Origin: Escherichia phage LF82-10 | Direction: 5' to 3' (one strand) | Sequence record: PV660453 | DNA length: 52,895 nt | Shown here: piece by piece, positions 31,337 through 52,895 of the stretch | Position numbering within the stretch: the first letter of the stretch is position 1 | Layout of the letters: each line of letters opens with the position of its first letter | Made by a program: the position numbers and the translations under genes | Notes under the pieces: generated by a model | The model's input: the letters and a program-made list of their open reading frames with translations, nothing else | What the model was told of the DNA's origin: nothing | Databases searched by the model: none

Positions 31337-31556
31337 AGAGGGTAAACGCGCCGTTTGGGAGCACTGCAAAGAGGCTGGCATTGACGGCGACATAGCGCTA
31401 ATCGCAAAGTATTTCGATATCAAGGATATTTGCCTGATCTACAATGGCAAAATGACCTACATCGAAGATAGGCCGCGAAAGATGGTTAGGATCGCGGTAG
31501 CCACCAAGCCGGATAAAGACGTAGCGGCGTACATCAAGGAAACAAAGAAAAAATGA
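31323..31556 (+). CDS. hypothetical protein
   Basis: in-frame ATG (MVIVEEGK...) within ORF-track 31248..31556; 77 aa. Confidence 0.35.
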   Translation: MVIVEEGKRAVWEHCKEAGIDGDIALIAKYFDIKDICLIYNGKMTYIEDRPRKMVRIAVATKPDKDVAAYIKETKKK

Positions 31557-31810
31557 ACCTCCCGCACCTGGATTTCAACCCGCATGATTACGATGAATAC
31601 TCAGGGCAGGTAACAGACGGCGATTACCGAATGATTCCGTTCGCTGACTGGTTGCCTCCTGACTTTGAAGACGTTCTATGCAGTCGAGGCGGCGCGTTCA
31701 AACTGATGTACTTTAGCCCGGCTACTGGTATGATGGTTCCCAGCGAAACAGAATGCGCAAGCGAAGCGCTTGAACCTTCACAGCTCACTATATGGTTGAA
31801 AAAGATTTGA
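31553..31810 (+). CDS. hypothetical acidic protein
   Basis: 85 aa, Asp/Glu-rich; ATG overlaps upstream stop. Confidence 0.4.
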   Translation: MNLPHLDFNPHDYDEYSGQVTDGDYRMIPFADWLPPDFEDVLCSRGGAFKLMYFSPATGMMVPSETECASEALEPSQLTIWLKKI

Positions 31811-31893: not shown

Positions 31894-33030
31894 ATGTCAC
31901 TGAAGAAAATCACCGACGAGCAGTTAAACGCCGAGCGAGAGTCGGGTAAAACTTACCGCCAGATCGCGGAAGAGTACGGAATGAACATACGCACCGTCGA
32001 GGCTCGCGGCGCACGCCTGGCTAAGAAAGGTTTCGGTCACGGTAACGGCGATGCATCGCGATTTGTTCCAGAAGGCTTCATGGTTAAGGGCACATCAACC
32101 ATGCACCGCGCGAACGGAGAGGTTATCGTTAGCTGGACGAAAACCAATCAGGATCATGAGAAGTTAGCCGCCATGCTTGAGCACGCGATCGAGGCGTTTT
32201 GCGTTGAGCTTCCACGCGCAGCCGCTACACCTTCCAACGTTGGTGAGGTGATGGAGAACCAGCTCGCGCTTTATCCTGTATTCGATCTGCATATCGGTGC
32301 AATGGCTCATAAGCATGAGTGCGGCGAGAACTACTCAACCGATATTGCCGAGAAGGTTTTGGGCGATTTCTTCAAGTACGCTGTGAACGTTGCGCCGAAG
32401 GCGAAGAAGGCGGTTGTGCTGGTTGGCGGTGACTACCTCCACTCTGACGGCCTGGACGCTGTAACACCCGCAAGCGGTCACGTTCTGGATCAGGACTCAC
32501 GTTACGCTAAGCTGGTTCACGTTGCCATTCGCTCACTCCGTCGCGGCGTTGCGCTTCTGCTTGATAAGCATGAAGAGATTGAGATCCAGATTATCGAAGG
32601 CAACCACGATCAGGCGGGTATGATTTGGCTACGCGCTGCAATGGCGGCATACTTCGAAGATGAGCCGCGCGTCACGGTTGACACATCGCCTATGATCCTT
32701 CACCGTACCAAGTGGGGCAAAACGCTGTTAGGCTACACTCACGGTCACACGATGAAGAAAGCAGAAACCCGCCTCCAGGCGCTGGCTACTGACTTCCGTT
32801 CTGAGTTCGGCACGAGTGAATTCGTTTATACTCACTCAGGGCATTGGCATCACCAGACGCTTACAGAGCACACCTTAGGCATTGACGAGGTTCACGGTCA
32901 GTTAGGTGCCAAAGATGCGTATGCGGCTCGCGGTGGATGGCGCTCATATCGCCAGGCGGCGGTAATTGTCTATGATAAAGAATTTGGCGAGGTAGGCCGA
33001 TTCGTTTATCGTCCTCAGATGAGCAAATAG
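31894..33030 (+). CDS. HTH domain fused to calcineurin-like metallophosphoesterase
   Basis: 378 aa; N-terminal HTH-like KTYRQIAEEYGMNIRTVEARGARL; phosphoesterase motifs DLH, GGDYLHSD, GNHD, HGH, GHWH in canonical order. Confidence 0.7.
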   Translation: MSLKKITDEQLNAERESGKTYRQIAEEYGMNIRTVEARGARLAKKGFGHGNGDASRFVPEGFMVKGTSTMHRANGEVIVSWTKTNQDHEKLAAMLEHAIEAFCVELPRAAATPSNVGEVMENQLALYPVFDLHIGAMAHKHECGENYSTDIAEKVLGDFFKYAVNVAPKAKKAVVLVGGDYLHSDGLDAVTPASGHVLDQDSRYAKLVHVAIRSLRRGVALLLDKHEEIEIQIIEGNHDQAGMIWLRAAMAAYFEDEPRVTVDTSPMILHRTKWGKTLLGYTHGHTMKKAETRLQALATDFRSEFGTSEFVYTHSGHWHHQTLTEHTLGIDEVHGQLGAKDAYAARGGWRSYRQAAVIVYDKEFGEVGRFVYRPQMSK

Positions 33031-41514: not shown

Positions 41515-41574
41515 TGCTGTTTCCTCAGTTCGTTTCGTTGAGATAACTATAGCCGAAACATCCTGAGTGGTTTT

Positions 41575-41589
41575 AGCAAAAAGTGCTAT
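41575..41589 (-). promoter_or_regulatory. TAGCA-box (TAGCACTTTTTGCTA), first of leftward accessory operon
   Basis: -10 TATAGT 41546-41551 (minus). Confidence 0.55.
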
Positions 41590-41602
41590 TGATTCGATTT
41601 AT

Positions 41603-41664
41603 CCAATTATTCCATTATTCCAACTATTCTGGAATATTCCTGAATAACCGAATATCTGGAATAG
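41603..41664. repeat. cluster of GGAATA/TATTCC motifs including perfect palindrome GGAATATTCC (41631-41640)
   Basis: ATTATTCCA x2, GGAATATTCC, CTGGAATAG in 62 bp; GGAATAATTGGAATAG recurs at 42931-42946. Confidence 0.6.
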
Positions 41665-41709
41665 TCAAAATGACTATGGCTCTCCGTTCGTTTTAGCGAA
41701 CAAACGTTC

Positions 41710-41730
41710 GATGTGATGTGATGTGATGTG
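41710..41730 (+). repeat. (GATGT)4 microsatellite
   Basis: GATGTGATGTGATGTGATGTG. Confidence 0.8.
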
Positions 41731-41899
41731 AATGAGGGTGAGGAGGCGATCAGATCTGATCCCGAAACTTTTTCCCTCACCGCACGATTTGCTAATGAAT
41801 TGTCGTGCCTGTAGTTGTATGTTGTGTTTTACGTTTTCCGTGGAAATCGGTACGCGCTACTACGCGGAATAACAATGTTATGCTTTATATATAGATATA

Positions 41900-41950
41900 T
41901 AAGTATATATAAAATAAAGGTTTTTTATTATATATATTATCTAATTTCAT
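41900..41950 (+). repeat. AT-rich element (TAAGTATATATA...GGTTTTTT...ATCTAAT), copy B
   Basis: homologous to 20839-20880. Confidence 0.6.
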
Positions 41951-42162
41951 AACACTTTATAACGTGTTGTGTTTGTTCCGCCGGACGCGGAGTGATTGAT
42001 ATGTTTCGCGGCCTATTTATGCCTATATTGTGAAATATGGGTAGGGGGATATATACCCCTCCGAAATCCGCAACAAACGCTTAATACGCACTACAACCCA
42101 GCAGGAATGCACCATGTAGAGGAGATTTTGTTGATAATGGCAATAATCGACACAAATTAATC

Positions 42163-42191
42163 TTGACTACAATTAAGCTTTTCCGCATTAT
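42163..42191 (+). promoter_or_regulatory. sigma70-like promoter TTGACT-17-CATTAT for rightward accessory operon
   Basis: hexamers at 42163-42168 and 42186-42191, 33 bp upstream of 42224. Confidence 0.55.
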
Positions 42192-42223
42192 GGCGGCTCA
42201 ACCAATCAGATGAGGTATCACCC

Positions 42224-42721
42224 ATGACACTTGCAGAAGTATTGCGCTATATGGCAACCGAAGCCATGAAATCCCCTGAGAAGGAGATCACCGTGCCAGT
42301 GTGGCAAATCCTGGTTCAGGCACACAATCTGGACGCTGACGAGCGCCGCGCATTACAGGCAGACTTTGACAAGCGCGTTGAGCTGGTAGCAAGTGAGAAG
42401 CGCCTGACCAACTCGTACATCACCAACACCTGCAACCGCATGAAGGAAATGATCGCGGCTGACCTATCCATCACCACAAAGCGTGGCGAGGACGACGGCG
42501 GGAATCGGACGCTCACCCTGGGCGTTAAGCCCGGCGCAATGAAGCTGGGCAGTCGGAGCAAGTCGGAGAACATCGCGGCGAAGAATGCAGTGCAGGATTT
42601 TGCCCGGCGCATCATGGAGATTGCCCCAGCACTAGATAGCCTGAGCGATGATCGCGTTGCTGGTGCCGTCGATGGCGTGCGCATGATGAAAGAGCTGATT
42701 GCCAGGGAGGCCGGACTATGA
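42224..42721 (+). CDS. hypothetical protein (first gene of rightward accessory operon)
   Basis: 165 aa; SD GAGGT; downstream of sigma70-like promoter TTGACT-17-CATTAT (42163-42191). Confidence 0.45.
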   Translation: MTLAEVLRYMATEAMKSPEKEITVPVWQILVQAHNLDADERRALQADFDKRVELVASEKRLTNSYITNTCNRMKEMIAADLSITTKRGEDDGGNRTLTLGVKPGAMKLGSRSKSENIAAKNAVQDFARRIMEIAPALDSLSDDRVAGAVDGVRMMKELIAREAGL

Positions 42722-42930
42722 AGCTTCGAATAGCTATCGTTTCCGTTGTGCTGCCATTCAGCGGCGAGCGCAAAAACACATACGCCGTTCAAAAGCGGAT
42801 CGGCTTCTTCTGGTGGCAGACGCTTACCCTGTGTGACAGCTTGCCCCAGGCGCGCCACTATGTACGCCACACCCTGGAAGATCGCAGTGGTGAAAAGCTG
42901 GTCAAGGTTCTGAATCGTTATTCCTCTTGA
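42718..42930 (+). CDS. hypothetical protein
   Basis: 70 aa; ATGA coupling. Confidence 0.35.
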   Translation: MKLRIAIVSVVLPFSGERKNTYAVQKRIGFFWWQTLTLCDSLPQARHYVRHTLEDRSGEKLVKVLNRYSS

Positions 42931-42945
42931 ATGGAATAATTGGAA

Positions 42946-42960
42946 TAGCACGAACTGCTA
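42946..42960 (+). promoter_or_regulatory. TAGCA-box (TAGCACGAACTGCTA)
   Basis: preceded by GGAATA repeats; -10 CATAAT 42983-42988 inside palindrome GGGGCTATGCCATAATAGCCCC. Confidence 0.55.
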
Positions 42961-43019
42961 AAACACCAGATCGGGGCTATGCCATAATAGCCCTACACCA
43001 ACAAAACGAGGTTAGCACA

Positions 43020-43235
43020 ATGGAAACTGTAACAATCGGCGCTAAGCCGCCATCATTTGACAACTTCCCGTCGCAATTCGTTGAGGATGAATACGGTGAC
43101 GAAACAGAGGTGTCTTTAATTCACTCGTCAGGCAACAAGTCTGTACTCATGGAAAGCGGCAACATGATTTTCACGCCAGATCAGGCGCGCGAACTGGCTG
43201 CGGCTCTCATCAAGGCGGCTGAGGTGTGCGAATGA
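43020..43235 (+). CDS. hypothetical acidic protein
   Basis: in-frame ATG (METVTIG...) after box 42946-42960; 71 aa, Asp/Glu-rich. Confidence 0.4.
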   Translation: METVTIGAKPPSFDNFPSQFVEDEYGDETEVSLIHSSGNKSVLMESGNMIFTPDQARELAAALIKAAEVCE

Positions 43236-43441
43236 AGTTCAAAACTACATACGTATCACCGCGCGCTCGCGTTGCATTCAACCTGCGCAAGGGTATGACA
43301 TACGACGCTGAGAAGATTGGCAATCAGATTTCGGTGCGCGTGCCTATCGGTAGGCTCATCATCAAGCTCCAGGGAGAGAGGTTCATGAGTCGCTCAATGA
43401 CGGGCGAATTACTCGCGGCATGGGAGGAAGTGAAAAAATGA
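43232..43441 (+). CDS. hypothetical protein
   Basis: ATG 43232 overlaps upstream stop (ATGA); 69 aa. Confidence 0.4.
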   Translation: MKFKTTYVSPRARVAFNLRKGMTYDAEKIGNQISVRVPIGRLIIKLQGERFMSRSMTGELLAAWEEVKK

Positions 43442-43746
43442 TGATTTTGAATGACCGAGAGGAGCTACAGGAAGCCGTGAGACTGGCGCTAAAATCAGAC
43501 GTGCCATTTATCGAAGTTGTGCTTTGCGTGGCTGCCAGCCTCGATGTACGGCCCCGTGTGGCTGCTTTCATGGTTCACTCTAACACCTTCGATATGGCTG
43601 GCACATTCCAGGGTGATAAATTCCTTGAATTCTTGATGCAGCTAACCGATAAGTTCGAAGCCATGCATCCTGACCGGATAAGCGCCAGTGGGCAGATCCT
43701 GATCGAGGAGTTCACCAACTTTGTGATTCGCGGTACATGGCGATAG
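43438..43746 (+). CDS. hypothetical protein
   Basis: ATG 43438 overlaps upstream stop; 102 aa; stop TAG embedded in box 43744-43758. Confidence 0.4.
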   Translation: MMILNDREELQEAVRLALKSDVPFIEVVLCVAASLDVRPRVAAFMVHSNTFDMAGTFQGDKFLEFLMQLTDKFEAMHPDRISASGQILIEEFTNFVIRGTWR

Positions 43747-43758
43747 CACTTTTTGTTA
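43744..43758 (+). promoter_or_regulatory. TAGCA-box (TAGCACTTTTTGTTA)
   Basis: TAG is stop of upstream gene; -10 CATACT 43781-43786 after hairpin TGCCGG/CCGGCA. Confidence 0.55.
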
Positions 43759-43816
43759 AACGTGTGCCGGGCTAATCCGGCATACTGTCACCACACCAAC
43801 CAATCAAGAAGTCAAC

Positions 43817-44095
43817 ATGAAGACGTTAAAAGAGATTTTGGCAGAAATTGACGAGGCTGCGCTCAAGGATAATGACGACGAGGCCACAACAAGCAAGAAG
43901 ATCCTGACTTGCGGAGCCACTCACATTGCGCAAGATGCAGACGGCGCAGTATTCGCATTCAGGGGTAAGCCAACCGCCACGAAAATTGAGGATATGACGG
44001 AGTGGTTTAGCGGCGAAAAAGGTGAAGTGCTGTTATTCTGCGCAGACCTGGAAAAGCCAGAAGATTGGACGCAGTGCATTTGGGAGCTGCCATAA
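43817..44095 (+). CDS. hypothetical protein
   Basis: 92 aa. Confidence 0.4.
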   Translation: MKTLKEILAEIDEAALKDNDDEATTSKKILTCGATHIAQDADGAVFAFRGKPTATKIEDMTEWFSGEKGEVLLFCADLEKPEDWTQCIWELP

Positions 44096-44415
44096 TGAAA
44101 AAGTTTGTCGGATCGTGTTTGCTGGTTTCTGTCCTGGCGCTGGCGTTCATCGCTCTCGCAGGGTGTGACGACTCAACCCGCGTGCCTCGTGAGCAGCGTA
44201 GCAAGGTGCGGGTCACAACGGCTGAATCCGGGCGCGTGCAGGTGCGCAAGATCAGCGAATTCCGTGACGACCTGGCTTATGACAGCTATCGAGGCGTGTA
44301 CATCATCACGGACACTGAAACCGGGCAGGAGTTCATAGGCGTTAGCGGTGTTGGTATCAGTGCTATCGGGCAACACAATTGCGGCAAAAACTGCTGGAAG
44401 AAAGATGAGAGATAG
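44095..44415 (+). CDS. putative lipoprotein
   Basis: ATG overlaps upstream stop (TAATG); signal peptide with lipobox LAGC. Confidence 0.5.
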   Translation: MKKFVGSCLLVSVLALAFIALAGCDDSTRVPREQRSKVRVTTAESGRVQVRKISEFRDDLAYDSYRGVYIITDTETGQEFIGVSGVGISAIGQHNCGKNCWKKDER

Positions 44416-44427
44416 CACTTTTTGTTA
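44413..44427 (+). promoter_or_regulatory. TAGCA-box (TAGCACTTTTTGTTA)
   Basis: TAG is stop of lipoprotein gene; -10 CATAAT 44450-44455. Confidence 0.55.
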
Positions 44428-44484
44428 AAACTGCCCGGAGCGATTCGGGCATAATGATTTCACACCAAACGAGAGGAAGTGAAA

Positions 44485-45099
44485 ATGTTTAAATTAGTTC
44501 GCGGCGTAACAACTCCAAATGACATTCTTATCCATGTTGCATCCGGCGCACGCTATGACGTTCCTGACAACACCAAACAGGTTGCAGTAGATCAGGATGG
44601 AGAAATATACGCCTATGAATCCGGCATGGCTAAAGTAGAGCACGGGCACACCGGATGGAGTGATAACGGATATGATGGTTTTGTCAAGTGCATCGGTAAG
44701 ATTCCGAGCGATCAGGAAAACATGCCGAAAGGTGTATTCCCTGGATGGCTGGACTCATTGACAAGCATCGACGCGCTTAAGCTTTCGCCGGAATACGCCC
44801 CGCTAGGCAGTAAGAAAAAGATTGAGATCGCAACACCCGTTCGCATTGGCGGCTCACAACTCCGCGCTCGTGTCACGGAATATCTTGACCGCAAGATGAA
44901 GGATAACGTTGTCGGATCTGTTCGGGCGCGCCACTTCCTTTCTGACATTCGAAGCGAGGGCTTCACGTTCGAGAACTACCGCACAGCCGATCTCGTCCTG
45001 GCTCTGGTTACTATCGGGTGCGATCTCAAGCTGGCTCGTGACTATGCAGCATTCCGCGCCATTGATGATGCGGTTCACTTTGTGCGAGGTGAGGCATGA
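44485..45099 (+). CDS. hypothetical protein
   Basis: 204 aa from ATG 44485, SD GAGGAAG. Confidence 0.45.
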   Translation: MFKLVRGVTTPNDILIHVASGARYDVPDNTKQVAVDQDGEIYAYESGMAKVEHGHTGWSDNGYDGFVKCIGKIPSDQENMPKGVFPGWLDSLTSIDALKLSPEYAPLGSKKKIEIATPVRIGGSQLRARVTEYLDRKMKDNVVGSVRARHFLSDIRSEGFTFENYRTADLVLALVTIGCDLKLARDYAAFRAIDDAVHFVRGEA

Positions 45100-45227
45100 A
45101 CCTAACAACTCTTGAGGCGATCATTGTCGCTACCGCTGGCTTACTCGTTGCTGGCATCATCATTGAGCAAATTGCCTATACCTGGTTGCAGATTGTTAAG
45201 CGCCGGAAGGAGAAAGGTGATGATTAA
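45096..45227 (+). CDS. small hydrophobic peptide (43 aa)
   Basis: ATGA coupling to upstream gene; one TM segment followed by KRRKEK. Confidence 0.3.
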   Translation: MNLTTLEAIIVATAGLLVAGIIIEQIAYTWLQIVKRRKEKGDD

Positions 45228-45324
45228 TGCAATCGGCGCGGCATGTCTTCTTGCTTCCGTCACTGTGGTTGCGGTTGGCGCTGTTTGGCTAATGGCAAAA
45301 ATATTGCGTGAGATTGACGAATAG
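45220..45324 (+). CDS. small hydrophobic peptide (34 aa)
   Basis: ATG overlapping upstream stop; one TM segment; stop TAG embedded in box 45322-45336; alternative is a 70-aa TTG-initiated ORF 45112..45324. Confidence 0.25.
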   Translation: MINAIGAACLLASVTVVAVGAVWLMAKILREIDE

Positions 45325-45336
45325 CACGAATTGCTA
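45322..45336 (+). promoter_or_regulatory. TAGCA-box (TAGCACGAATTGCTA)
   Basis: -10 TATCAT 45359-45364 inside inverted repeat CGGCATG/CATGCCG. Confidence 0.55.
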
Positions 45337-45396
45337 AAACGGCATGGCTCCTGAGTGGTATCATGCCGTTACACCAAACAAACAGGAGTCACCCAA

Positions 45397-45762
45397 ATGA
45401 AAGTTAAATGCATTAGTTCAGACGTTTTGCTTGATGGTTACTACACCCCAGGTAGAGTCTACCGATTAAGGCGAGAAAGGGGCAAAAGCTATAGAACCGT
45501 TAAATCAAACAGAGGCGTTGATCTTGGTGTTATCCACGACCCATTAAAAAGAGGTCGGTTTTTCGTTGCTGGATTTGAACGTTGTGTGTTTGATTCGGCT
45601 CCGCACCGATTCGTGAAGCGCAACCAAAGCGCCGCGCTGGGGCAGATTGAGATCGACTATACGCGATGCAAGCGCAGCATTCGCAATCAGGCTCGCAACA
45701 TCGCAAAAGAGCACTTCTCGTGCGGCAAGCTTGAGAAGATTGCGCGAGGCTATAAGCGATAG
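45397..45762 (+). CDS. hypothetical basic protein (MKVKCI, MKxKC-family)
   Basis: 121 aa from ATG 45397, SD CAGGAG. Confidence 0.45.
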   Translation: MKVKCISSDVLLDGYYTPGRVYRLRRERGKSYRTVKSNRGVDLGVIHDPLKRGRFFVAGFERCVFDSAPHRFVKRNQSAALGQIEIDYTRCKRSIRNQARNIAKEHFSCGKLEKIARGYKR

Positions 45763-45774
45763 CACTTTTTGCTA
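45760..45774 (+). promoter_or_regulatory. TAGCA-box (TAGCACTTTTTGCTA)
   Basis: -10 TATAGT 45797-45802 inside inverted repeat AAGGGCA/TGCCCTT. Confidence 0.55.
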
Positions 45775-45842
45775 AAACTTCCGCAAGGGCATTTGATATA
45801 GTGCCCTTATTGAAGCAGAGCAAACCAATCAGAGGATTCAAC

Positions 45843-46052
45843 ATGGCAATACCAACATTTACCCGTAAGCAGTTTACCGAGTTCTTCCGCCTGGTTAACA
45901 TGAGCGGCAGCCCGCACCAGATGGATCGCATCACTAGCCGCCTTGAAATGCCCAAGTTCGTTGAGGCAGTCGGGCGCAAGAATTGCAATAGCATGTGGGC
46001 GCTGATTAATGGCGGCGTTACACCATCAACCTTAGACCCGGAGATCAAATAA
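45843..46052 (+). CDS. hypothetical protein
   Basis: 69 aa, SD AGAGGA. Confidence 0.4.
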   Translation: MAIPTFTRKQFTEFFRLVNMSGSPHQMDRITSRLEMPKFVEAVGRKNCNSMWALINGGVTPSTLDPEIK

Positions 46053-46417
46053 TGCGCATTCGTTTATTAAACCCGTCAATCTATACCGGAATGGAGCTGA
46101 GCAAATACAACTCAGATCCTATGCACGACGAAAGCAACTACCCGGTTATTGTTGAAGCGTCAGAGAAGGATCACAACGGCTTTGAATTCACAGGCCGGGC
46201 GCATGTAAGCTACAAGGAGCTTGATCGCGTATTCCCATACGGATTCGAGCGCGACAAGTGCGAACCTGGGAAGGGCATTGGCTGGTGGAATAACCCGGTA
46301 AAACGAGACGCTAAAACGCCTCAAATCTCATGGGAGCCAGTATCACCGTTTGACTACTGGAACAAGCTGAAATCATCCCGCCCGGTTGGTGACGTGGTTC
46401 CGGCGGGGTACTTATGA
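46052..46417 (+). CDS. hypothetical protein
   Basis: 121 aa; TAATG coupling. Confidence 0.4.
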   Translation: MRIRLLNPSIYTGMELSKYNSDPMHDESNYPVIVEASEKDHNGFEFTGRAHVSYKELDRVFPYGFERDKCEPGKGIGWWNNPVKRDAKTPQISWEPVSPFDYWNKLKSSRPVGDVVPAGYL

Positions 46418-46665
46418 GAAAATTAACCCGCGATGAGGAGCGTTTTAAATCGTGCCTCAAGAAGTCAAAGCAGAAGGCTATCATCATGGATCGCAACTCA
46501 TCCGGTCAAGCCTTCTGGCATTTCCCGGACGTTGAGCAAACGGGATGGCACCCGGACACTATACGAGATCTCATGCGTGATGATCTTGTTGAGTTCGGGT
46601 TAATGGATAGTGGGCACCCTAACGGACAGCCGCGATACAGTAACGCAAAGTGGATAGGGGGTTGA
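46414..46665 (+). CDS. hypothetical protein
   Basis: 83 aa; ATGA coupling. Confidence 0.4.
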   Translation: MRKLTRDEERFKSCLKKSKQKAIIMDRNSSGQAFWHFPDVEQTGWHPDTIRDLMRDDLVEFGLMDSGHPNGQPRYSNAKWIGG

Positions 46666-46666
46666 T

Positions 46667-46855
46667 ATGCAGATCTACAAATCGCCAGGCGGAGCAAGAT
46701 ATGTCGTTGTTGATGGCGTTGTTTACTGCAAGCCAGCAGATGGAAGCATGGTTTACAGGCCGCGCATGACGGTTGAGCGATATCTTGAGCTTATCGCTGG
46801 CGGTCTTCTGACATTCCATTGCGTTATTCGCCCGGTAATGTTCAAAAAGCACTAA
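46667..46855 (+). CDS. hypothetical protein
   Basis: 62 aa. Confidence 0.35.
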   Translation: MQIYKSPGGARYVVVDGVVYCKPADGSMVYRPRMTVERYLELIAGGLLTFHCVIRPVMFKKH

Positions 46856-46861
46856 TTGCTA
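46847..46861 (+). promoter_or_regulatory. TAGCA-box variant (AAGCACTAATTGCTA)
   Basis: -10 TATAGT 46884-46889 inside inverted repeat AAGAGGCA/TGCCTCTT. Confidence 0.5.
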
Positions 46862-46927
46862 AAACTTGCTAAGAGGCATTTGTTATAGTGCCTCTTGTCG
46901 AGTTAACACAAATACAGAGGATTTGAA

Positions 46928-47632
46928 ATGAGCATTCAACGCTACTACCCTGAAGTGAAGTACACAGTGCGGGAAACTCGCGTTAATATGGCTCCACACG
47001 AGCGCGGAAGCTATGTGACCTATGAATCACACATCGAAGAATTGCGCCGCGTACAGGCCGAATTAGACGCCTTAAAAGCGATGCAAAAAAGCGATTTTTT
47101 CTATCACCTAAAGCCAGTCTTCGAAAAGGCGCTTGAAGAGGCGATTGCTATCGTCGTGAAGCAAGCCAGCCAATCAGTTTTCAAGGTTGACGCTGAGGCG
47201 CTAATTGCTGCTGACGTTGGCCGTTGGATGGAGAAGCACATGAACGAGCGCGCCGGATTTGCAACTGGCAGCCTGTTTGTGGGTGATGTAGAGGTTGATT
47301 TCGACAACAACAAAGTCAAGATCACCGATGCGCTAATCAAGAGCGGCGTTGTGACTGAAAGCGAATTATTCTCTTTCCCTAAGGCACGAAAGAACATTGT
47401 CGTTTGCACAAGCGCCGATGAAGGTAGCGGTTTCACTATTGGAAAGAAATACGCATTCGATCGCAATGAAGGGAACATTATCCGAATCTGCCAGGATGAT
47501 TTTGTTTCAGATCTCGCAGAGGATGATTGCTGGATTGCAAGCCGCCGCCGAAACCTGGTAAGCGGTGAATTCAGATACTTCTTACAGGGGCATACAGAAG
47601 GCAAGCGCGCATCTTTCGAGATCGTTGAATAG
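46928..47632 (+). CDS. hypothetical protein
   Basis: 234 aa; contains internal CT...GKKY motif of the MKxKC family; stop TAG embedded in box. Confidence 0.45.
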   Translation: MSIQRYYPEVKYTVRETRVNMAPHERGSYVTYESHIEELRRVQAELDALKAMQKSDFFYHLKPVFEKALEEAIAIVVKQASQSVFKVDAEALIAADVGRWMEKHMNERAGFATGSLFVGDVEVDFDNNKVKITDALIKSGVVTESELFSFPKARKNIVVCTSADEGSGFTIGKKYAFDRNEGNIIRICQDDFVSDLAEDDCWIASRRRNLVSGEFRYFLQGHTEGKRASFEIVE

Positions 47633-47644
47633 CACGAATTGTTA
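47630..47644 (+). promoter_or_regulatory. TAGCA-box (TAGCACGAATTGTTA)
   Basis: -10 TATCAT 47667-47672 inside inverted repeat GGCATGTG/CATGTGCC. Confidence 0.55.
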
Positions 47645-47702
47645 AACGGGCATGTGTTCCGACTGGTATCATGTGCCAACACAAACAAGCAAGGGGCTTT
47701 AA

Positions 47703-47870
47703 ATGTTCGAAGAAAAGAAACACAGGCCGGAACAAGCTTACTCAAGGGTATCACGCACCGTTAAAGAGCGTAGGCGCTGGGTTAAGTATTTCATGAATCA
47801 AGGCCACACCAGATCGGTTGCGATTGGCCTGGCTAAGTGGGCAACAAACAACTACAACGGGAAAAACTGA
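47703..47870 (+). CDS. hypothetical basic small protein
   Basis: 55 aa; stop overlaps next start; below ORF-track cut-off. Confidence 0.3.
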   Translation: MFEEKKHRPEQAYSRVSRTVKERRRWVKYFMNQGHTRSVAIGLAKWATNNYNGKN

Positions 47871-48502
47871 TGAACTTTCAAATGTACACTATGATCAAGC
47901 ATCACTTACTTACTCATCCAGATCAGCCAGTCTACATCTTCGACTATGACGGCACGCTTTCGGATGGCTCTCACCGACTGGACAAGTTGCCAACAAAAGA
48001 TTTGCACCTCACCGAAAGCTGGGAAGAGTTCAATCGCCTTGCTTCATTCGATGAGCCGATCGAAACAACCATTCAGGTGATGAATTCACTTTATAAGGCT
48101 GGCGCTTTCGTTATCGTGTTAACCGGGCGCGCCGATAGCGTTGTTGAAGAGTCAACACAATGGCTGCATGATGCTGGGGCGAAATATACAGTGATGGTGA
48201 TGCGTGGGCGTGACGACAATCGCAAGGACACGATCATCAAGGAGGAATTCTTGCGCTACATCGGACTTGAGCGAATTACAGCGGCGTGGGATGATAGCCC
48301 AAAAGTGATCGAGCATTTCCGATCGCTGGGCATCACAACCTACCAGGTTTGTGATTATGGCGATAAGACTCACGCGCATCTACAGTCACACGGCGTGAAA
48401 GATGCTGGCGGAGAGTGTGAGCATATTTGGGAGCGTCACAGTATTGGTGACGATTATTATGAATGCTGTGTTTCATGCGGCAGATCAAGAGGCATTAAGT
48501 AA
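47870..48502 (+). CDS. HAD-family phosphatase (T4 Pnk 3'-phosphatase-domain-like)
   Basis: 210 aa; HAD motif I FDYDGTL; later segments (VLTGRAD, RGRDDNRKDTIIKEEF, AWDDSPKVIEHFRSLGITTYQV) resemble the T4 polynucleotide kinase phosphatase domain from memory. Confidence 0.6.
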   Translation: MNFQMYTMIKHHLLTHPDQPVYIFDYDGTLSDGSHRLDKLPTKDLHLTESWEEFNRLASFDEPIETTIQVMNSLYKAGAFVIVLTGRADSVVEESTQWLHDAGAKYTVMVMRGRDDNRKDTIIKEEFLRYIGLERITAAWDDSPKVIEHFRSLGITTYQVCDYGDKTHAHLQSHGVKDAGGECEHIWERHSIGDDYYECCVSCGRSRGIK

Positions 48503-49110
48503 TGGCAACTATCATCATTCTGAATGCGCCGCCGCGCGCCGGGAAAGACACGATCGCGAAAATCATCGACGAGCAATACGGCTTGCCAGTTGTGAGCTTC
48601 AAAACTCCGATGTTCAACATTGCTCGCGGCATCTTGGGCGAAGCGGATTTTAAAGAGTTCATGGCGGTTTACGAAACAGACCGCAAGGACACACAGCCGT
48701 TAAGTATTCTGCATGGCAGCACTTGCCGCGAGTTTATGATCTGGATTAGCGAATCCGTGATTAAGCCTCATTTCGGCAAGAAGCATTTCGGCTGGCTTAT
48801 GGCTGATTTGCTCAGCGAAATGGAGGATGATGTTGATCTCACAATTTGCAGCGATGGCGGGTTCCCGGATGAGGTAGAGGCGTTGATTGACTTCGGGCAC
48901 CGTGTCAAGCTGGTTCGTATGCACCGTGAAGGCTTCGACTTCTCGAAAGATAGCCGTGACTACATCTACCTTTCCGAAGAGTACAAGAGCAAGCCTGGTG
49001 TTGTTGAGTTCGATCTGACATTGCAGGACGGTTGCCCTAATCTGGCTGCTGAGACTATCGCGTCATTGTTCATTGCCCATCATAAACCAGATAACGAGAT
49101 CCCTTGGTAA
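48502..49110 (+). CDS. P-loop kinase (T4 gp1 dNMP-kinase-like)
   Basis: 202 aa; Walker A LNAPPRAGKDT and later ICSDGGFPDEVEA resemble T4 dNMP kinase; start overlaps phosphatase stop (TAATG). Confidence 0.55.
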   Translation: MATIIILNAPPRAGKDTIAKIIDEQYGLPVVSFKTPMFNIARGILGEADFKEFMAVYETDRKDTQPLSILHGSTCREFMIWISESVIKPHFGKKHFGWLMADLLSEMEDDVDLTICSDGGFPDEVEALIDFGHRVKLVRMHREGFDFSKDSRDYIYLSEEYKSKPGVVEFDLTLQDGCPNLAAETIASLFIAHHKPDNEIPW

Positions 49111-49111
49111 A

Positions 49112-49126
49112 TAGCACTTTTTGTTA
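49112..49126 (+). promoter_or_regulatory. TAGCA-box (TAGCACTTTTTGTTA) fused to terminator-like hairpin
   Basis: 41 bp identical (inverted) to 37282-37322; hairpin CCCGCTTCGGCGGG 49129-49142 then TTTTGTTATTC. Confidence 0.5.
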
Positions 49127-49183
49127 AACCCGCTTCGGCGGGTTTTGTTATTCTTGCTTTAACGAAACGAAATGGAGTGAAGA

Positions 49184-49414
49184 ATGAAAACTTTATCAGA
49201 GCTGAAGTCGATCGCGGCTGACTTGCAGGAGCGAATGAAGCCACTAAACCACAAGCTGGAAAACTCGCGCATTACTATAGCCTCAAGAATGTCTATCGAG
49301 TGCTCACTGCGCGAACTTAAAATCATGTGGCATGATGCCATGTGCGACGTTCACGCTCACCCTGAGTACGAAGGTGAGTTTAAATTCCAGAAAGAAAACA
49401 ACCCATACCGATAA
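49184..49414 (+). CDS. hypothetical protein
   Basis: 76 aa. Confidence 0.4.
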   Translation: MKTLSELKSIAADLQERMKPLNHKLENSRITIASRMSIECSLRELKIMWHDAMCDVHAHPEYEGEFKFQKENNPYR

Positions 49415-49424
49415 GGATTCAATA

Positions 49425-49721
49425 ATGAACACTATCAAAAAGTTGACTCCAAACATGGCAACCAAAATCAAGTACGAGATCCCGGAGGATGGCACATTCT
49501 TAGCCGTCTGGACTTATCGCGAGATCCCGTACTCCGGTACTTATCAATGGCGAAACGGCGAGCTTGCCGTGTGGGTTGATGGCGTTGGCTGGGAAATTGC
49601 CGGGCATGGAGCGGCGGAGGACTATTACGATTTCAACTGCCTCGTGTCTATGGCTAGTGGTGAGAATTACGGCGGTGCTTGTCACTTTGTTGCGGTTGTA
49701 GTGGTTGAGGAAACAGCGTGA
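49425..49721 (+). CDS. hypothetical protein
   Basis: 98 aa from in-frame ATG (MNTIKK...). Confidence 0.4.
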   Translation: MNTIKKLTPNMATKIKYEIPEDGTFLAVWTYREIPYSGTYQWRNGELAVWVDGVGWEIAGHGAAEDYYDFNCLVSMASGENYGGACHFVAVVVVEETA

Positions 49722-49891
49722 AGACTTTTATTATTTTCCTAGTTGGCGCTTGCATGGTTAGCGTTTCTGATAACTTCACAGTTTTCGTTGGCGCTGCGAT
49801 GGTGTCGTGGGCTTACTACCGATGCGGAAAGGCTGACGGAATAGCGGAAGGTAAACGCCAGGCGCTGGCATCCGGCACTAAGTTAAAGTAG
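49718..49891 (+). CDS. small membrane protein (GTG start)
   Basis: 57 aa, two hydrophobic segments; GTGA overlap with upstream stop; TAG embedded in box 49889-49903. Confidence 0.25.
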   Translation: MKTFIIFLVGACMVSVSDNFTVFVGAAMVSWAYYRCGKADGIAEGKRQALASGTKLK

Positions 49892-49903
49892 CACGATTTG
49901 TTA
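49889..49903 (+). promoter_or_regulatory. TAGCA-box (TAGCACGATTTGTTA)
   Basis: -10 TGGTATAAT 49923-49931 inside inverted repeat GGGGAT/ATCCCC. Confidence 0.55.
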
Positions 49904-49961
49904 AAAGGGGATTCGTCCTGACTGGTATAATCCCCACATCAACCAAGCAGAGGAAACGATC

Positions 49962-50414
49962 ATGAAATTAGTTTGCACATCATCACGCGTCAAAAGCTTC
50001 ACCGTTGGAAAGAAATATGAAAGCCGCACAGTCGAGCATTACGGAATTGTTACGCACGAGGTGGACGGAGACACCGCTTGCGGCTGGGTGATTAACGATG
50101 GCCTGAGCATTTGCGGAGCTGATCACTCAAACCCAATGGCAACTTTCCGCAAGGATAAGAGCATGATGAAGATGCTTGTTCGCGCATTCGTATTGGTTGC
50201 AAAGGCTCGCGGTTGGGGTGATAGCAAGAGCGGGGCTTACAAATCCTGGAGCGGCACACCTTACAAAAACTCCAGAGATTGGGCGCGAGCTATTGCCTTC
50301 AGCTACGATGTTGGGAGTGTTGCGCGCGAGATAATTGATGAAGATCCTAACGTGAAACTCATCGACCAGGAAGCGGTAAACCTGTTTGCCGAAAACGAGA
50401 TCGACAACTGGTAA
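49962..50414 (+). CDS. hypothetical protein (MKLVCT, MKxKC-family)
   Basis: 150 aa; SD GAGGAA. Confidence 0.45.
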   Translation: MKLVCTSSRVKSFTVGKKYESRTVEHYGIVTHEVDGDTACGWVINDGLSICGADHSNPMATFRKDKSMMKMLVRAFVLVAKARGWGDSKSGAYKSWSGTPYKNSRDWARAIAFSYDVGSVAREIIDEDPNVKLIDQEAVNLFAENEIDNW

Positions 50415-50476
50415 TTTGCGCAAGGCCGTTTATAATAGCGGCCTTACTCAGACAAACCAATCAGAAGGAAATCACC

Positions 50477-50905
50477 ATGAAATTACGTTGCACATTCCTT
50501 GAGCCAGCTTTCGCAAAAGCTCTGGCTGAGTTCTACACCATCGGCAAAACTTACGCCGCATCCATCAAGCCGGGATCAAAGGTTGGCGCTGTGCTGGTGG
50601 AGTCAAACGAAGGCAATGAAGGCGATCAGCTTGCAGCAGTTCCGAGCCGCTCAGGGTTCGAGGTTCAAATTAAGAACCAAATTCCGATCGCAAAGTTCGA
50701 GGTTGTTGGCAAGCGTGCGGTGAAGCTTGTTAAGACTGAGAAGCGCGTAACGCTGAAACTTGATGGCGTGGGGAAATCAGATAAGCGCCGATTCCGCCGT
50801 GTTTGCCGCCAGTATCGAAAGTTGAAATTCATCAACCCTGGATTCTATTATGATCTGGAATCCGATCGCCACATGGCTAAACTTGCGCGACATCACCGCC
50901 GATAG
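50477..50905 (+). CDS. hypothetical basic protein (MKLRCT, MKxKC-family)
   Basis: 142 aa; SD AGAAGGAA. Confidence 0.45.
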   Translation: MKLRCTFLEPAFAKALAEFYTIGKTYAASIKPGSKVGAVLVESNEGNEGDQLAAVPSRSGFEVQIKNQIPIAKFEVVGKRAVKLVKTEKRVTLKLDGVGKSDKRRFRRVCRQYRKLKFINPGFYYDLESDRHMAKLARHHRR

Positions 50906-50917
50906 CACTTTTTGCTA
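50903..50917 (+). promoter_or_regulatory. TAGCA-box (TAGCACTTTTTGCTA)
   Basis: -10 TATAGT 50940-50945 inside inverted repeat CGGGGTT/AACCCCATCG. Confidence 0.55.
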
Positions 50918-50978
50918 AAACTCGAAATCGGGGTTGCGATATAGTAACCCCATCGAAACGCAACGGAGCAAACGAAAA

Positions 50979-51209
50979 ATGAAAAAGTACCCAACTGCGA
51001 TGATTATCCGCACCACTAACCGCGTAGAAGCCGATGCACTCACCCTGGCCGAATGTGGTTTCAAGGTTGGTGATATCATCGAGCTTGACGGATGCTACTG
51101 CGACGGCACAGCAAGTGCAAAAGCGATTCGCGAAGGGCTTGGGATTCGCGTAGGCGATAACGTCAGCCTTGAGGCTTGCGAATATGTTGTTGTGGAGGGT
51201 TCTATATGA
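50979..51209 (+). CDS. hypothetical protein
   Basis: 76 aa from in-frame ATG (MKKYPT...). Confidence 0.4.
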   Translation: MKKYPTAMIIRTTNRVEADALTLAECGFKVGDIIELDGCYCDGTASAKAIREGLGIRVGDNVSLEACEYVVVEGSI

Positions 51210-51511
51210 TTTGGGTTCACACTTACGGCGTGGGCAAGTTCGGCAAGCGCATTATAAAAACCATCCACGAGAGCGCCGAAAGCGCTGAGGACTCACAAAA
51301 AGTCCTTGGTGGAACGGTTGAGCAGTTCATGAGCACAGAAGAGGTTGCGATCGAGAAATACCATATCGCCAACGCTGCGCGCCAGGAAGTTAGCGATATC
51401 ATTGACGACTTCAGCAAGCACGATCCGGCATCCTACGGTTCGCCGGGATGGGATGCGAAAAAGCTGAAGGCGTGCAACATGATCAACCAGATTATCGAAG
51501 GGGATTTTTGA
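51206..51511 (+). CDS. hypothetical protein
   Basis: 101 aa; ATGA coupling. Confidence 0.4.
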   Translation: MIWVHTYGVGKFGKRIIKTIHESAESAEDSQKVLGGTVEQFMSTEEVAIEKYHIANAARQEVSDIIDDFSKHDPASYGSPGWDAKKLKACNMINQIIEGDF

Positions 51512-51745
51512 ATGTTCGGACTGAGTGAGCCGCACTGGAACATAGTTAAGAGCCAGGCGCGAAAGCTGAATGAAGCGGTTAAAGCAATGCCGGAGAAAGA
51601 TCGCAAAAATGACCGCCTGATGATTCAGGTTATCGACAAGCATCACCAGCCGATCGCCACCATCATTGAGCGCTTGAAATTCACTTGGACGGCTGGATAT
51701 TTAGCCGGGCGCGTGGGAAATAAAACTAACGGAGATTATGAGTAA
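51512..51745 (+). CDS. hypothetical protein
   Basis: 77 aa. Confidence 0.4.
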   Translation: MFGLSEPHWNIVKSQARKLNEAVKAMPEKDRKNDRLMIQVIDKHHQPIATIIERLKFTWTAGYLAGRVGNKTNGDYE

Positions 51746-51927
51746 TGGCAGGATTTGACAGCACGAAAAAAGACGCTACGCAAGAAGAGTGGAAGGAACA
51801 GCTTGATTGCATCGTCGAACTAAACGGCTACAACCCTGATTTCATCCCTGATTCATGGCTTGATGCATATGATGGCGGCGCTGAAGTGGCTGATTTCTTT
51901 TACGATAACTATGACTCGGAGGAATAA
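51745..51927 (+). CDS. highly acidic small protein
   Basis: 60 aa, ~30% Asp/Glu with aromatic residues; TAATG coupling. Confidence 0.4.
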   Translation: MAGFDSTKKDATQEEWKEQLDCIVELNGYNPDFIPDSWLDAYDGGAEVADFFYDNYDSEE

Positions 51928-52133
51928 TGTTTAAGCATCTGCCAAAGAAAGGCGAAATCATTCGCTGTGATTCAGTAGTTGGAGCCGCGCCGTTTATGGT
52001 TGGCGTTGAGTACACCGTTGAACATGTTGATCGCAAAGTTGGTCACATCTACGTTTACGGTGACGAAGGCAACCTCGAGGCGATCGACTACCCGCAAGAC
52101 GCTGTACACGGAAAGTTTTCAAAAGTTGATTGA
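51927..52133 (+). CDS. hypothetical protein
   Basis: 68 aa; TAATG coupling. Confidence 0.4.
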   Translation: MFKHLPKKGEIIRCDSVVGAAPFMVGVEYTVEHVDRKVGHIYVYGDEGNLEAIDYPQDAVHGKFSKVD

Positions 52134-52297
52134 CGACACCTTCGCTGAGTGGTAAATTAAAAAGCGTAGACAGAAGAGGCGCTTAGAGCGCAACGGGCAT
52201 CACGTTTGATGCAACTTAGTTTACAGCGTCATTGATGGCGCTTTCATTCGGTGCATAGTGGTAAGCACGCCGTAGACCCGTAAGCGGCACAAATTCA

Positions 52298-52385
52298 GGA
52301 AGGTTGGCAGAGTGGACGATCGCGCACGGTTGCTAACCGTCAAGCCGGAAACGGCTCAAGGGTTCGAATCCCTTACCTTCCACCA
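52298..52385 (+). tRNA. type II tRNA, probably tRNA-Ser (anticodon GCU)
   Basis: perfect 7-bp acceptor stem GGAAGGT/ACCTTCC, discriminator A and encoded CCA; T-arm AAGGG-TTCGAAT-CCCTT; long variable arm GCCG-GAAA-CGGC; anticodon loop TTGCTAA; one C-C mismatch at base of anticodon stem. Confidence 0.7.
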
Positions 52386-52400
52386 ATCAAAGAGGTTTGC

Positions 52401-52580
52401 ATGTTTGATGTTAAACTCACTATCTTGTTAATGGGGCGCTCATGCGCATCATGCAAGCAACACTTCGAGTGCACCGTTGAGGCGGAAACATCCGAAGATG
52501 CCGTGTCAAAGGCAAAGGCAATGGCGGGAGCCGATCCCACTACTCACAAGTTTTTAGTTAACTACGTAAGGAAAAAGTAA
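52401..52580 (+). CDS. hypothetical Cys-containing small protein
   Basis: 59 aa; SD AGAGG; below ORF-track cut-off. Confidence 0.3.
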   Translation: MFDVKLTILLMGRSCASCKQHFECTVEAETSEDAVSKAKAMAGADPTTHKFLVNYVRKK

Positions 52581-52581
52581 A

Positions 52582-52815
52582 ATGCTGAATTCAATTTTGT
52601 TTATCGTCCTGGGTGTGATTATTGGCGTTATCGTCGTTGTTGCGTGGGCTGGCCTGTGGTCGCGAAAGCTACTGGCAAAGAACCAATTCGCCTCAGCGCG
52701 CTTCGATACGAAATCAAAAGAATGGCGCATTTGCGGCAAGTACGCAAAGATCGCACAGGAGTTGGTAGACATTCGCGAAGGACGAAAGCCTGGCGCGATT
52801 AAGTACATCGACTGA
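52582..52815 (+). CDS. small membrane protein
   Basis: 77 aa; N-terminal TM segment LFIVLGVIIGVIVVVAWAGLW; followed by terminator 52820-52843. Confidence 0.45.
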   Translation: MLNSILFIVLGVIIGVIVVVAWAGLWSRKLLAKNQFASARFDTKSKEWRICGKYAKIAQELVDIREGRKPGAIKYID

Positions 52816-52819
52816 TAAA

Positions 52820-52843
52820 CAACCCGCTTCGGCGGGTTTTTTT
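52820..52843 (+). terminator. intrinsic terminator at end of rightward accessory operon
   Basis: AACCCGCTTCGGCGGG then TTTTTTT. Confidence 0.6.
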
Positions 52844-52855
52844 GCGTCTGCAATC

Positions 52856-52864: not shown

Positions 52865-52895
52865 CGAACCTCATCAACAAAGGAGGGAAGGAACA

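Follow-up and report, generated by a model that had tools for sequence, protein, structure and literature searches.

We analyzed a 52,895-nucleotide window (PV660453), which represents the genome of Escherichia phage LF82-10/-11; this phage is T1-like and belongs to the Drexlerviridae. Three of its small open reading frames, here termed A, B and C, each coincide with a CDS annotated as a hypothetical protein in Escherichia phage LF82-11 (PV660454.1; beyond position 25460, window coordinates are those of that record minus 84). Arrays of small ORFs leave a divergent non-coding region in both directions, leftward from 41514 and rightward from 42224, and a strong hairpin, which has a near-duplicate at 49126-49145, closes the rightward array (Table 1). 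B heads a repeat-marked block in the accessory gene array, and A lies in another such block, positioned late in the array; the intergenic repeat at the head of these blocks has been reported for T1 and Stevie (PMC4319613). The initial annotation spoke of early-type operons, a description that gains nothing from a generic sigma-70 scan (12 promoter-like sites versus 13.2 expected in shuffled sequence, i.e., no excess) or from the literature, in which a search for expression time courses of T1-like phages came up empty. The span that it gave, 43020-51927, is merely the stretch between two unrelated genes, A and B, and C lies outside it.

Table 1. Coordinates of the three small acidic proteins and of associated features in the window.
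Feature	Position	Strand	Description
Protein C	31553..31810	+	85 aa; ORF and annotated CDS
phrog_704 'DNA repair exonuclease'	31894..33030	+	378 aa; E 4.8e-149; metallophosphoesterase-type motifs
Divergent non-coding region	41515..42223	.	AT-richer; one sigma-70-like site at 42163-42191
T1-type intergenic repeat, second copy	42947..42991	+	immediately upstream of B
Protein B	43020..43235	+	71 aa; ORF and annotated CDS
T1-type intergenic repeat	50900..50948	+	ATAGCAC-N4-TTG[CT]TAAA...; heads A's gene block
Five-gene block with A	50979..52133	+	50979-51209, 51206-51511, 51512-51745, A, 51927-52133; tightly packed, starts/stops overlap
Protein A	51745..51927	+	60 aa; ORF and annotated CDS
Intrinsic-terminator-like hairpin, strong	52821..52838	+	closes rightward array, just before terminase genes

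A, B and C had been singled out as small, strongly acidic proteins and, on that account, as Ocr-like DNA-mimic or anti-defense candidates. In net charge per residue, they do rank first, third and sixth of the 91 CDSs, but only A goes beyond chance: with residues drawn from the amino-acid usage of LF82-10 itself, its charge has P = 4.3e-4 per protein (0.04 such proteins expected among 91), whereas 2.7 proteins as charged as B and 4.0 as charged as C are expected. The calculated pI is 4.05 for A, which has a conserved negative charge, and 4.22 and 4.24 for B and C, which have a charge within chance. A, B and C are mutually unrelated (e.g., no relationship in the profile comparison of A and B) and have to be judged separately. 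Three further small CDSs, 40868-41026(-), 41275-41514(-) and 43817-44095(+), are equally acidic and were missing from the initial annotation; none of the six proteins has a significant match in Pfam, NCBIfam or PADLOC. For A, B and C, neither ArdA nor KlcA(ArdB) was matched in Pfam or NCBIfam at E<=1, and PDB sequence and profile searches returned nothing relevant; a match to the DNA mimic AcrIF13 (E = 0.47) was dismissed as compositional only.

Protein C is moderately acidic (net -9) and corresponds to phrog_4596 (E = 5.4e-30, residues 1-85 versus profile positions 1-84 of 85). It is present in 214 T1-like genomes with fixed synteny, i.e., not as an accessory gene, and features the conserved motif IPF[SA]DW[LI]PPD[FY] and a predicted small beta-barrel fold. 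Acidity is not a conserved feature of C: in T1, the orthologue has a net charge of -3. The phrog_704 exonuclease, for which Pfam gave no significant match, is encoded directly downstream of C in T1, Rogue1/RTP and LF82-10. These properties weaken the earlier proposal as far as C is concerned: we consider it a poor mimic candidate. It is a core T1-like protein, which most likely acts with the adjacent exonuclease or otherwise in DNA metabolism.

Protein B (net -9) is a near-orphan accessory gene product found only in four LF82 phage records. Its conserved domain spans residues 20-71 ([FY]VEDxYGD...FTPxQARELAAALIxAAE), and its four relatives are also acidic (net -5 to -12). We rejected a longer, TTG-initiated version of the ORF from 42927, because it would cross the intergenic repeat; the annotated ATG at 43020 has a good ribosome-binding site (Shine-Dalgarno GAGG, 8 nt upstream). 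The best PDB match of B, to a designed LRR protein in its alanine-rich capping helix, is not meaningful. The standing of B as a candidate is much as it was before this analysis.

Protein A is the most acidic of the 91 LF82-10 proteins, with 17 Asp/Glu (28.3%), three Lys/Arg (5.0%) and a net charge of -14; with its 10 Phe/Trp/Tyr residues, this bears out the earlier description of a 60-aa protein of about 30% Asp/Glu with Trp/Tyr/Phe. It is encoded by the fourth gene of its block, which has a Shine-Dalgarno sequence (GGAG) 9 nt upstream and overlaps both neighbors, start with preceding stop and stop with following start; all its block partners belong to PHROGs without known function. A belongs to a family of 103 clusters from more than 1000 contigs, all of them free-standing ORFs of about 60 aa (44-68 aa), which is uncharacterized and had not been described, though it is widespread in enterobacterial phages and prophages (hosts: E. 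coli, Salmonella, Klebsiella, Citrobacter and Enterobacter). Among its 58 representatives, 51 match phrog_519 (best E 2.9e-10); LF82-10 A does so at E = 1e-6 over profile positions 76-135 of 143, i.e., the C-terminal half only. Acidity is kept in 57 of the 58 (mean net -12, D/E 27%, K/R 7%), although the subfamilies differ at about 40% of the acidic positions. For instance, LF82-10 A and the Salmonella-type proteins (about 42% identity) have 17 acidic residues each but only 10 acidic columns in common, which suggests that selection acts on charge itself.

The distribution of A is that of an accessory (arms-race) gene, patchy among close relatives and moving between unrelated phages. It occurs in 35 of 50,697 phage records, namely T1-likes, one P22-like phage and one Stephanstirmvirinae phage, and in many prophages; within the phage collection, the LF82 group is the only one among the E. 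coli T1-likes to have it, T1 itself lacks it, and its position within the gene array varies between genomes. In T1-likes it is located among nucleotide-metabolism genes (PNK and dNMP kinase), and P22-like prophages carry it in the accessory region between integrase and recombination genes, known from lambda and P22 as the early-left operon, together with Kil, CIII and, about 2 kb away, the anti-RecBCD gene abc2 (Anti-RecBCD_p2). No neighbor of A is conserved across these contexts and unrelated phage groups, from which it follows that A acts alone. A conserved gene of about 75 aa that follows the prophage copies with a 1-nt overlap was rejected as a conserved partner, as it is found neither in T1-likes nor in Tr1.

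These observations bear on the possibility, which we regard as doubtful, that A has a phage-internal role to which its acidity is incidental, for instance as a regulator of a neighboring gene product or as a small chaperone or adaptor of a basic phage protein, with the acidity of B and C being sampling noise among many short proteins. The latter part agrees with the chance-level charge of B and C and with the fact that C is a syntenic core gene with a charge that is not conserved; the 75-aa gene could be a partner of A in the prophage lineage. For A in general, however, that partner is not conserved, the charge is maintained family-wide far beyond chance, and the movement of the gene between phages with unrelated gene sets argues for a host rather than a phage target.

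The confident AlphaFold model of A (pLDDT 88, pTM 0.73) is a monomeric three-helix bundle of about 7 kDa (H13-26, H38-43 and H48-55) with amphipathic helices and an acidic exterior. Judged by helix periodicity only, the solvent faces carry stripes of conserved acidic residues (positions 14/18/21/25 and 49/50/54/55), and the invariant hydrophobic positions (W16, L20, I/M23, V24, L26, V48, F51 and Y53) lie on the opposite faces. The sole full-length structural look-alikes of the model are two uncharacterized proteins of similar length (about 60 aa), W6B140 of Erwinia phage Ea9-2 and I0J310 of Dickeya phage LIMEstone1, with TM 0.72-0.79 over 56-58 aligned columns, an identity of just 18-22% and a non-significant Foldseek E (0.1-0.3). 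The fold searches gave no match to Ocr, ArdA, gp5.9 or any named protein. Structure prediction, proposed earlier as a check for similarity to DNA mimics, yielded no fold like that of a known mimic for A, and a small beta-barrel for C.

Ocr (T7 gp0.3), an inhibitor of type I R-M and BREX, is the archetype of DNA mimics, and its composition (D/E 29.1%, K/R 5.1%, net per residue -0.239, pI 4.05) is nearly identical to that of A (net per residue -0.233, same pI), with equal charge density. Both are all-alpha, in the case of A by prediction, and both are encoded by accessory genes of virulent coliphages. Small size with high acidity is a recognized hallmark of DNA mimics, which are structurally diverse (PMC9836394), and a pI of about 4 is in use as a heuristic for them (10.1101/2023.04.06.535777); A displays this combination of small size and very high negative charge density throughout its family, and in this respect the proposal is strengthened. 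The likeness stops short of homology: Pfam gave none at E<=1, the A-family profiles A3, A4 and A6 score at noise level, and hhalign of A3 with Ocr returned a probability of 0.14%. Ocr is a dimer of 117 aa and the first gene product expressed in T7, whereas A has 60 aa, half an Ocr monomer, is the fourth gene of an internal block and has a predicted fold that does not match an elongated all-alpha dimer mimicking bent B-DNA. Most characterized mimics are likewise dimers, with a longer DNA-like surface, and high acidity is found in non-mimic proteins too.

We weighed whether A (and B and C) could be Ocr/ArdA-like anti-restriction proteins that block type I R-M by DNA mimicry, and we consider this very improbable. 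Besides its composition, A has in its favor that it is an accessory gene near other counter-defense genes, and Drexlerviridae vary greatly in R-M sensitivity, type I included, from 'unknown factors' (PMC8594841). Against it stand the lack of homology or fold resemblance to Ocr or ArdA, a size far below the footprint of the Ocr dimer, which mimics about 24 bp of bent DNA (PMC2806950), the two DNA methyltransferases that the LF82-10 genome already encodes, and the unexceptional charge of B and C; nothing on A points to type I restriction in particular. A is missing from T1 and most E. coli T1-likes and therefore cannot explain the general restriction behavior of the family; as the cause of T1's classical restriction escape it is ruled out.

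Two other T7 proteins are closer to A in size. The 52-aa DNA-mimic inhibitor of RecBCD, gp5.9, is less acidic (net per residue -0.154, pI 4.08) and helical with Asp/Glu on the outside (PMC9836394), and its dimer is a parallel coiled coil braced by a beta-sheet at the N-terminus, unlike the compact bundle predicted for A. The two are without sequence similarity (hhalign probability 0.26%), and the resemblance extends to context, in that the prophage A homologues lie close to abc2, the other known RecBCD modulator. T7 Gp2, a stand-alone, stoichiometrically binding early or middle inhibitor of host RNA polymerase (64 aa; NC_001604 annotation), is acidic but much less so than A (net -5), shows no profile similarity to it and did not turn up when folds were searched. 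Profile comparisons with T7 Ocr, gp0.4, gp1.2, Gp2, gp5.5, gp5.7 and gp5.9 revealed no relationship, and a literature search for the conserved motifs, together with the supplements of the accessory-gene screen of Silas et al., found nothing.

In a further alternative, possible if somewhat doubtful, A (and possibly B) would be a host-takeover rather than an anti-defense factor, inhibiting RNA polymerase, the nucleoid proteins H-NS/HU or MukBEF, Ung, or the machinery of replication or cell division. The likeness in size to Gp2 speaks for this. Such housekeeping proteins are conserved in all hosts of the family and in this sense fit better than strain-variable defense systems; the neighborhood of PNK and dNMP kinase in T1-likes is in keeping with such a role, and for gp5.9 inhibition of MukBEF is reported in addition to that of RecBCD (PMC7617805). 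The patchy occurrence of A, which is dispensable in most relatives, is more typical of arms-race genes, and A resembles neither Gp2 nor other known takeover proteins.

On composition plus context, A is a plausible DNA-mimic or anti-defense protein, whereas the case for B is weak and C is unlikely to be one. Our preferred reading, to which we tentatively assign a probability of about one in three, is that A is a DNA-mimic-like polyanionic decoy, that B may follow the same logic and that C is no mimic but a core T1-like protein. In this reading A, a free-standing accessory protein that moves horizontally, would fold into a small amphipathic three-helix bundle with exposed faces that are almost all Asp/Glu. 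As a stoichiometric decoy it could bind the positively charged surface with which a protein conserved in Enterobacteriaceae contacts nucleic acid, and thereby keep DNA or RNA out. Specificity might come from the conserved acidic-aromatic helix (V-D-D-F-F/Y-Y-D/E) and the conserved N-terminal peptide, and a defense or repair nuclease complex (of the type I R-M, BREX or RecBCD class) would be one possible target among several. We infer the binding mechanism, the early expression and the link to defense from these features; as an inhibitor of a host DNA-binding protein, A is a reasonable but unproven candidate. DNA-mimic anti-defense proteins tend to be broad-spectrum and to be triggers of backup immunity. 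A stronger version, which we think improbable, would make the A family a new, widespread, minimal DNA-mimic counter-defense family of Enterobacteriaceae phages and prophages that blocks a DNA-binding immune or repair complex and might itself be sensed by backup systems such as PARIS or retrons.

If A is not a mimic, the three genes are an ordinary set of hypothetical small phage proteins. About a dozen DNA-mimic anti-defense proteins have been catalogued, 11 of them in EVADES (10.1101/2025.06.06.658234). If the mimic reading is true, the 60-aa A family, found on more than 1000 prophage and phage contigs of Salmonella, Klebsiella and E. coli, would provide a compact new scaffold among the smallest natural mimics, would help to explain the differing defense sensitivity among related Drexlerviridae and would matter for phages considered for therapy against the pathobiont LF82.

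We found that, among the three small proteins of phage LF82-10 singled out by the initial annotation as strongly acidic (here A, B and C; see the table), there is one solid candidate, protein A, which represents a new, widespread and uncharacterized family of 60-aa polyanionic three-helix proteins. All three ORFs coincide with CDSs annotated as 'hypothetical protein', their calculated pI and net charge confirm an acidic character, and they rank first, third and sixth, respectively, by net charge per residue among the 91 CDSs annotated in the record. When proteins were simulated from the residue usage of this phage, A stood out as a true outlier (P = 4.3e-4; 0.04 equally acidic proteins expected among 91). 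B and C did not: chance alone would give 2.7 and 4.0 equally acidic proteins, respectively. The description thus holds in substance for A but was overstated for the other two. Across the whole proteome, acidic proteins are in mild excess, with seven at or below a net charge of -0.10 per residue versus 3.1 ± 1.7 expected. Three further small CDSs, absent from the initial annotation, are as acidic as B and C. One of them (41275-41514) opens the leftward array at the divergent control region, a place that may be likened to that of ocr in T7, and only two other phages of the phage collection encode relatives of its product; the product of 40868-41026 is confined to the LF82 phages in that collection.

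Features of the LF82-10 genome and of prophages carrying A homologs
Feature	Position (strand)	Properties
Protein A	51745-51927 (+)	60 aa; 17 D/E, 3 K/R, net -14; 10 aromatic residues; pI 4.05
Protein B	43020-43235 (+)	71 aa; net -9; pI 4.22
Protein C	31553-31810 (+)	85 aa; net -9; pI 4.24
Further acidic CDS	41275-41514 (-)	net -10; pI within 4.1-4.4
Further acidic CDS	40868-41026 (-)	net -9; pI within 4.1-4.4
Further acidic CDS	43817-44095 (+)	net -10; pI within 4.1-4.4
DNA methyltransferase genes	30097-30810 (+), 37320-38012 (-)	one Dam-like, syntenic with T1 dam
55-aa ORF	47703-47870	precedes the two kinase genes
Polynucleotide kinase/phosphatase gene	47703-48502 (span with the 55-aa ORF)	within small-ORF array
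dNMP kinase gene	48502-49110	within small-ORF array
tRNA-Ser	52298-52385	anticodon GCT
Non-coding region	41515-42223	two long small-ORF arrays diverge from it
Rightward small-ORF array	42224-52815	reaches terminase genes
Strong terminators	49126-49145, 52821-52838	in arrays
Intergenic repeat copies	30023, 31016, 33025, 42947, 43743, 44412, 45321, 45761, 46848, 47629, 49109, 49886, 50900 (+)	
Intergenic repeat copies	36803, 37264, 38948, 40110, 41530 (-)	
Shared-motif proteins	49962-50414, 50477-50905, 45397-45762, 33205-33378, 51927-52133	motif N-terminal
Shared-motif protein, sixth	46928-47632	motif in C-terminal part
Deletion in tail-fibre gene	~25454-25460	84 bp, in-frame
Prophage gene downstream of A homolog	L006/L007 6180-6410; L008 6180-6404; L003 3215-3319	~75 aa

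Protein A has no match in Pfam, NCBIfam or PADLOC, and its only family match is phrog_519 (function unassigned in PHROGs), with the C-terminal half of the profile covered. Two relatives turned up among 5.8 billion proteins when the single sequence served as query, and a six-sequence alignment recovered 103 clusters, all of 44-68 aa, none with a Pfam domain and all labelled 'hypothetical' or 'prophage protein'. The hosts are Salmonella, Klebsiella, Kluyvera, Citrobacter, Enterobacter and E. coli, with more than 1000 contigs in total. Among cultured phages the family is found in 35 records, including four LF82 phages, 27 Klebsiella T1-likes, Enterobacter phage Phc, the P22-like Salmonella phage UPF_BP1 and the 154-kb Stephanstirmvirinae phage Citrobacter Tr1; in the phage collection it is present neither in T1 nor in E. 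coli T1-likes beyond the LF82 group. Acidity is a trait of the whole family: its 58 representatives average a net charge of -12 (all between -16 and -8 except one aberrant member at -1), with 27% D/E and 7% K/R. A and the Salmonella-type proteins (~42% identity) have 17 acidic residues each, 10 acidic columns being common to both, and total charge appears to be kept while the acidic positions drift. The AlphaFold2 model built on the 58-sequence alignment is confident (pLDDT 88.3, pTM 0.73), with helices at residues 13-26, 38-43 and 48-55. Invariant hydrophobic positions (W16, L20, 23, 24, L26, A41, Y42, V48, F51, Y53) alternate with conserved acidic ones (14, 15, 18, 21, 25, 32, 35, 37, 39, 43, 49, 50, 54, 55), and A is predicted to form an amphipathic bundle with an almost entirely acidic exterior. 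A conserved, non-helical N-terminal peptide, M-A-D/G-F-x-x-T-K-K/R, carries the only conserved basic residues of the family and, together with a second conserved element, the acidic-aromatic helix V-D-D-F-F/Y-Y-D/E, is a plausible determinant of specificity.

The family occurs in several gene contexts. P22-like prophages carry the gene behind an Ead/Ea22 gene, in the stretch from the integrase to the recombination module, which in lambda and P22 is the early-left accessory region, where it is accompanied by Anti-RecBCD_p2 (abc2), Kil and CIII; by analogy with this lambdoid position, these homologs would be expressed early. In Klebsiella myovirus-type prophages and Tr1 it lies within arrays of small ORFs of no known function, in Klebsiella phage KLB26 immediately upstream of the dNMP kinase gene and in LF82-10 2.6 kb downstream of it. 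Since the contexts differ and the downstream gene is conserved among prophage copies only, A is an accessory gene that stands alone and is mobile. The downstream gene of the Salmonella and Klebsiella prophages overlaps the A homolog by 1 nt and encodes a protein with the C-terminus ...HLKTDPPFxDQxDANxHVAEELTYWTP, which is absent in T1-like and Tr1 contexts and may be a lineage-specific partner. A tRNA-Ser gene lies 165 nt 3' of the operon with A. Phage tRNAs can neutralize tRNA-cleaving backup defenses that sense Ocr, e.g., PARIS (PMC11464382); the adjacency may be a coincidence because T1-likes that lack A (e.g., NBD2) also have this tRNA.

In composition, A equals T7 Ocr, the DNA-mimic inhibitor of type I restriction (net charge per residue -0.233 and -0.239, respectively; both pI 4.05), whereas T7 gp5.9 (-0.154) and Gp2 (-0.078), inhibitors of RecBCD and RNA polymerase, are less acidic. 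Ocr, gp5.9 and Gam are sensed by PARIS and retron Ec48. Direct comparison found no homology to T7 Ocr, gp0.4, gp1.2, Gp2, gp5.5, gp5.7 or gp5.9, and a structure search of BFVD returned two full-length look-alikes only, uncharacterized proteins of Erwinia phage Ea9-2 and Dickeya phage LIMEstone1, both with non-significant similarity. Membership of A in the known mimic families is excluded by this absent fold match, which is still compatible with a mimic-like mechanism because DNA mimics are diverse in structure and recognized chiefly through small size and acidity (PMC9836394). Proteins of family A plausibly serve as decoys that engage a host protein binding nucleic acids; we put the probability of this general mechanism at about 0.35, and consider action specifically against type I restriction improbable. 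As small acidic proteins of no known function are common in phage accessory regions, this result will not surprise a specialist; A is a well-defined target that is cheap to test. The conserved motifs of A and C are not mentioned in the literature searched, and those of A and B do not occur in the supplements of a large accessory-gene screen (Silas et al.). LF82-10 also encodes two DNA methyltransferases, which are an alternative, already known route of restriction evasion in the T1-like family.

Protein B is uninformative. This near-orphan, low-information candidate is found in the phage collection in the four LF82 records only, and its matches in PHROGs are weak, the best being a family of unknown function. 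Four short genuine relatives (47-52% identity over residues 20-71) came out of an exhaustive HMMER scan of 1.84 billion representatives, whose other matches were to giant proteins and reflected repeats or composition. The relatives are acidic (net -5 to -12) and share with B the domain [FY]VEDxYGD...FTPxQARELAAALIxAAE; one lies in a comparable one-strand small-ORF array with a PNK-phosphatase gene. The B gene, whose annotated ATG has a good RBS, is the first of a block marked by the intergenic repeat. For C, the evidence speaks against mimicry. Its family is phrog_4596 (E = 5e-30), and 214 T1-like genomes, T1 among them, encode it; a ~378-aa phrog_704 'DNA repair exonuclease' is encoded directly downstream in T1, Rogue1/RTP and LF82-10, and a Dam methylase further upstream in T1 and LF82-10. 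Judging from its relatives (net -3 in the T1 ortholog, -4 in two others, -7 in Rogue1), acidity is not conserved, and six of its 14 acidic residues in LF82-10 lie within the first 24, a segment poorly conserved family-wide. The best reading of C is as a core accessory subunit or neighbor in DNA metabolism rather than a mimic, and it is probably unrelated to defense.

The LF82-10 group comprises virulent T1-like phages forming a novel genus-level cluster of Drexlerviridae (PMC12509680). Positions 42000-52895 are 100% identical to phages LF82-11, -12, -19 and -40, and LF82-11 (PV660454.1) matches the whole genome except for one mismatch and the 84-bp deletion; relative to LF82-11, -12 and -40, this deletion is possibly a host-range variant. 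Behind the structural genes of the first ~20 kb lie those for recombination and replication; the two small-ORF arrays diverge from the non-coding region at 41515-42223. The arrays are punctuated by strong terminators and by ~20 copies of the repeat ATAGCAC-N4-TTG[CT]TAAA, always oriented with transcription. Each copy stands at the head of a gene block, with a short hairpin or a [CT]ATAAT-like box behind it; the repeat, which may be a promoter, terminator or regulator site, corresponds to a 22-bp one described in T1 and Stevie (PMC4319613). The early-type operons in which A, B and C were placed are putative: early expression is inferred from this architecture, and sigma-70 sites in a generic scan of the window are not enriched over shuffled sequence; the literature searched gave no temporal expression data for T1-likes. 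The T1-likes TLS and Stevie reportedly combine PNK with an anti-restriction peptide resembling T4 Stp (PMC4319613).

In LF82-10, at least six small proteins, including the one encoded directly downstream of A, have in common the motif MK[VL]xC[IT]S...[FY]T[IV]G[KR]xY...G, and look like a paralogous mini-domain family scattered over the accessory arrays. Two of their genes, 49962 and 50477, are also alike at the DNA level in their ribosome-binding and start regions.
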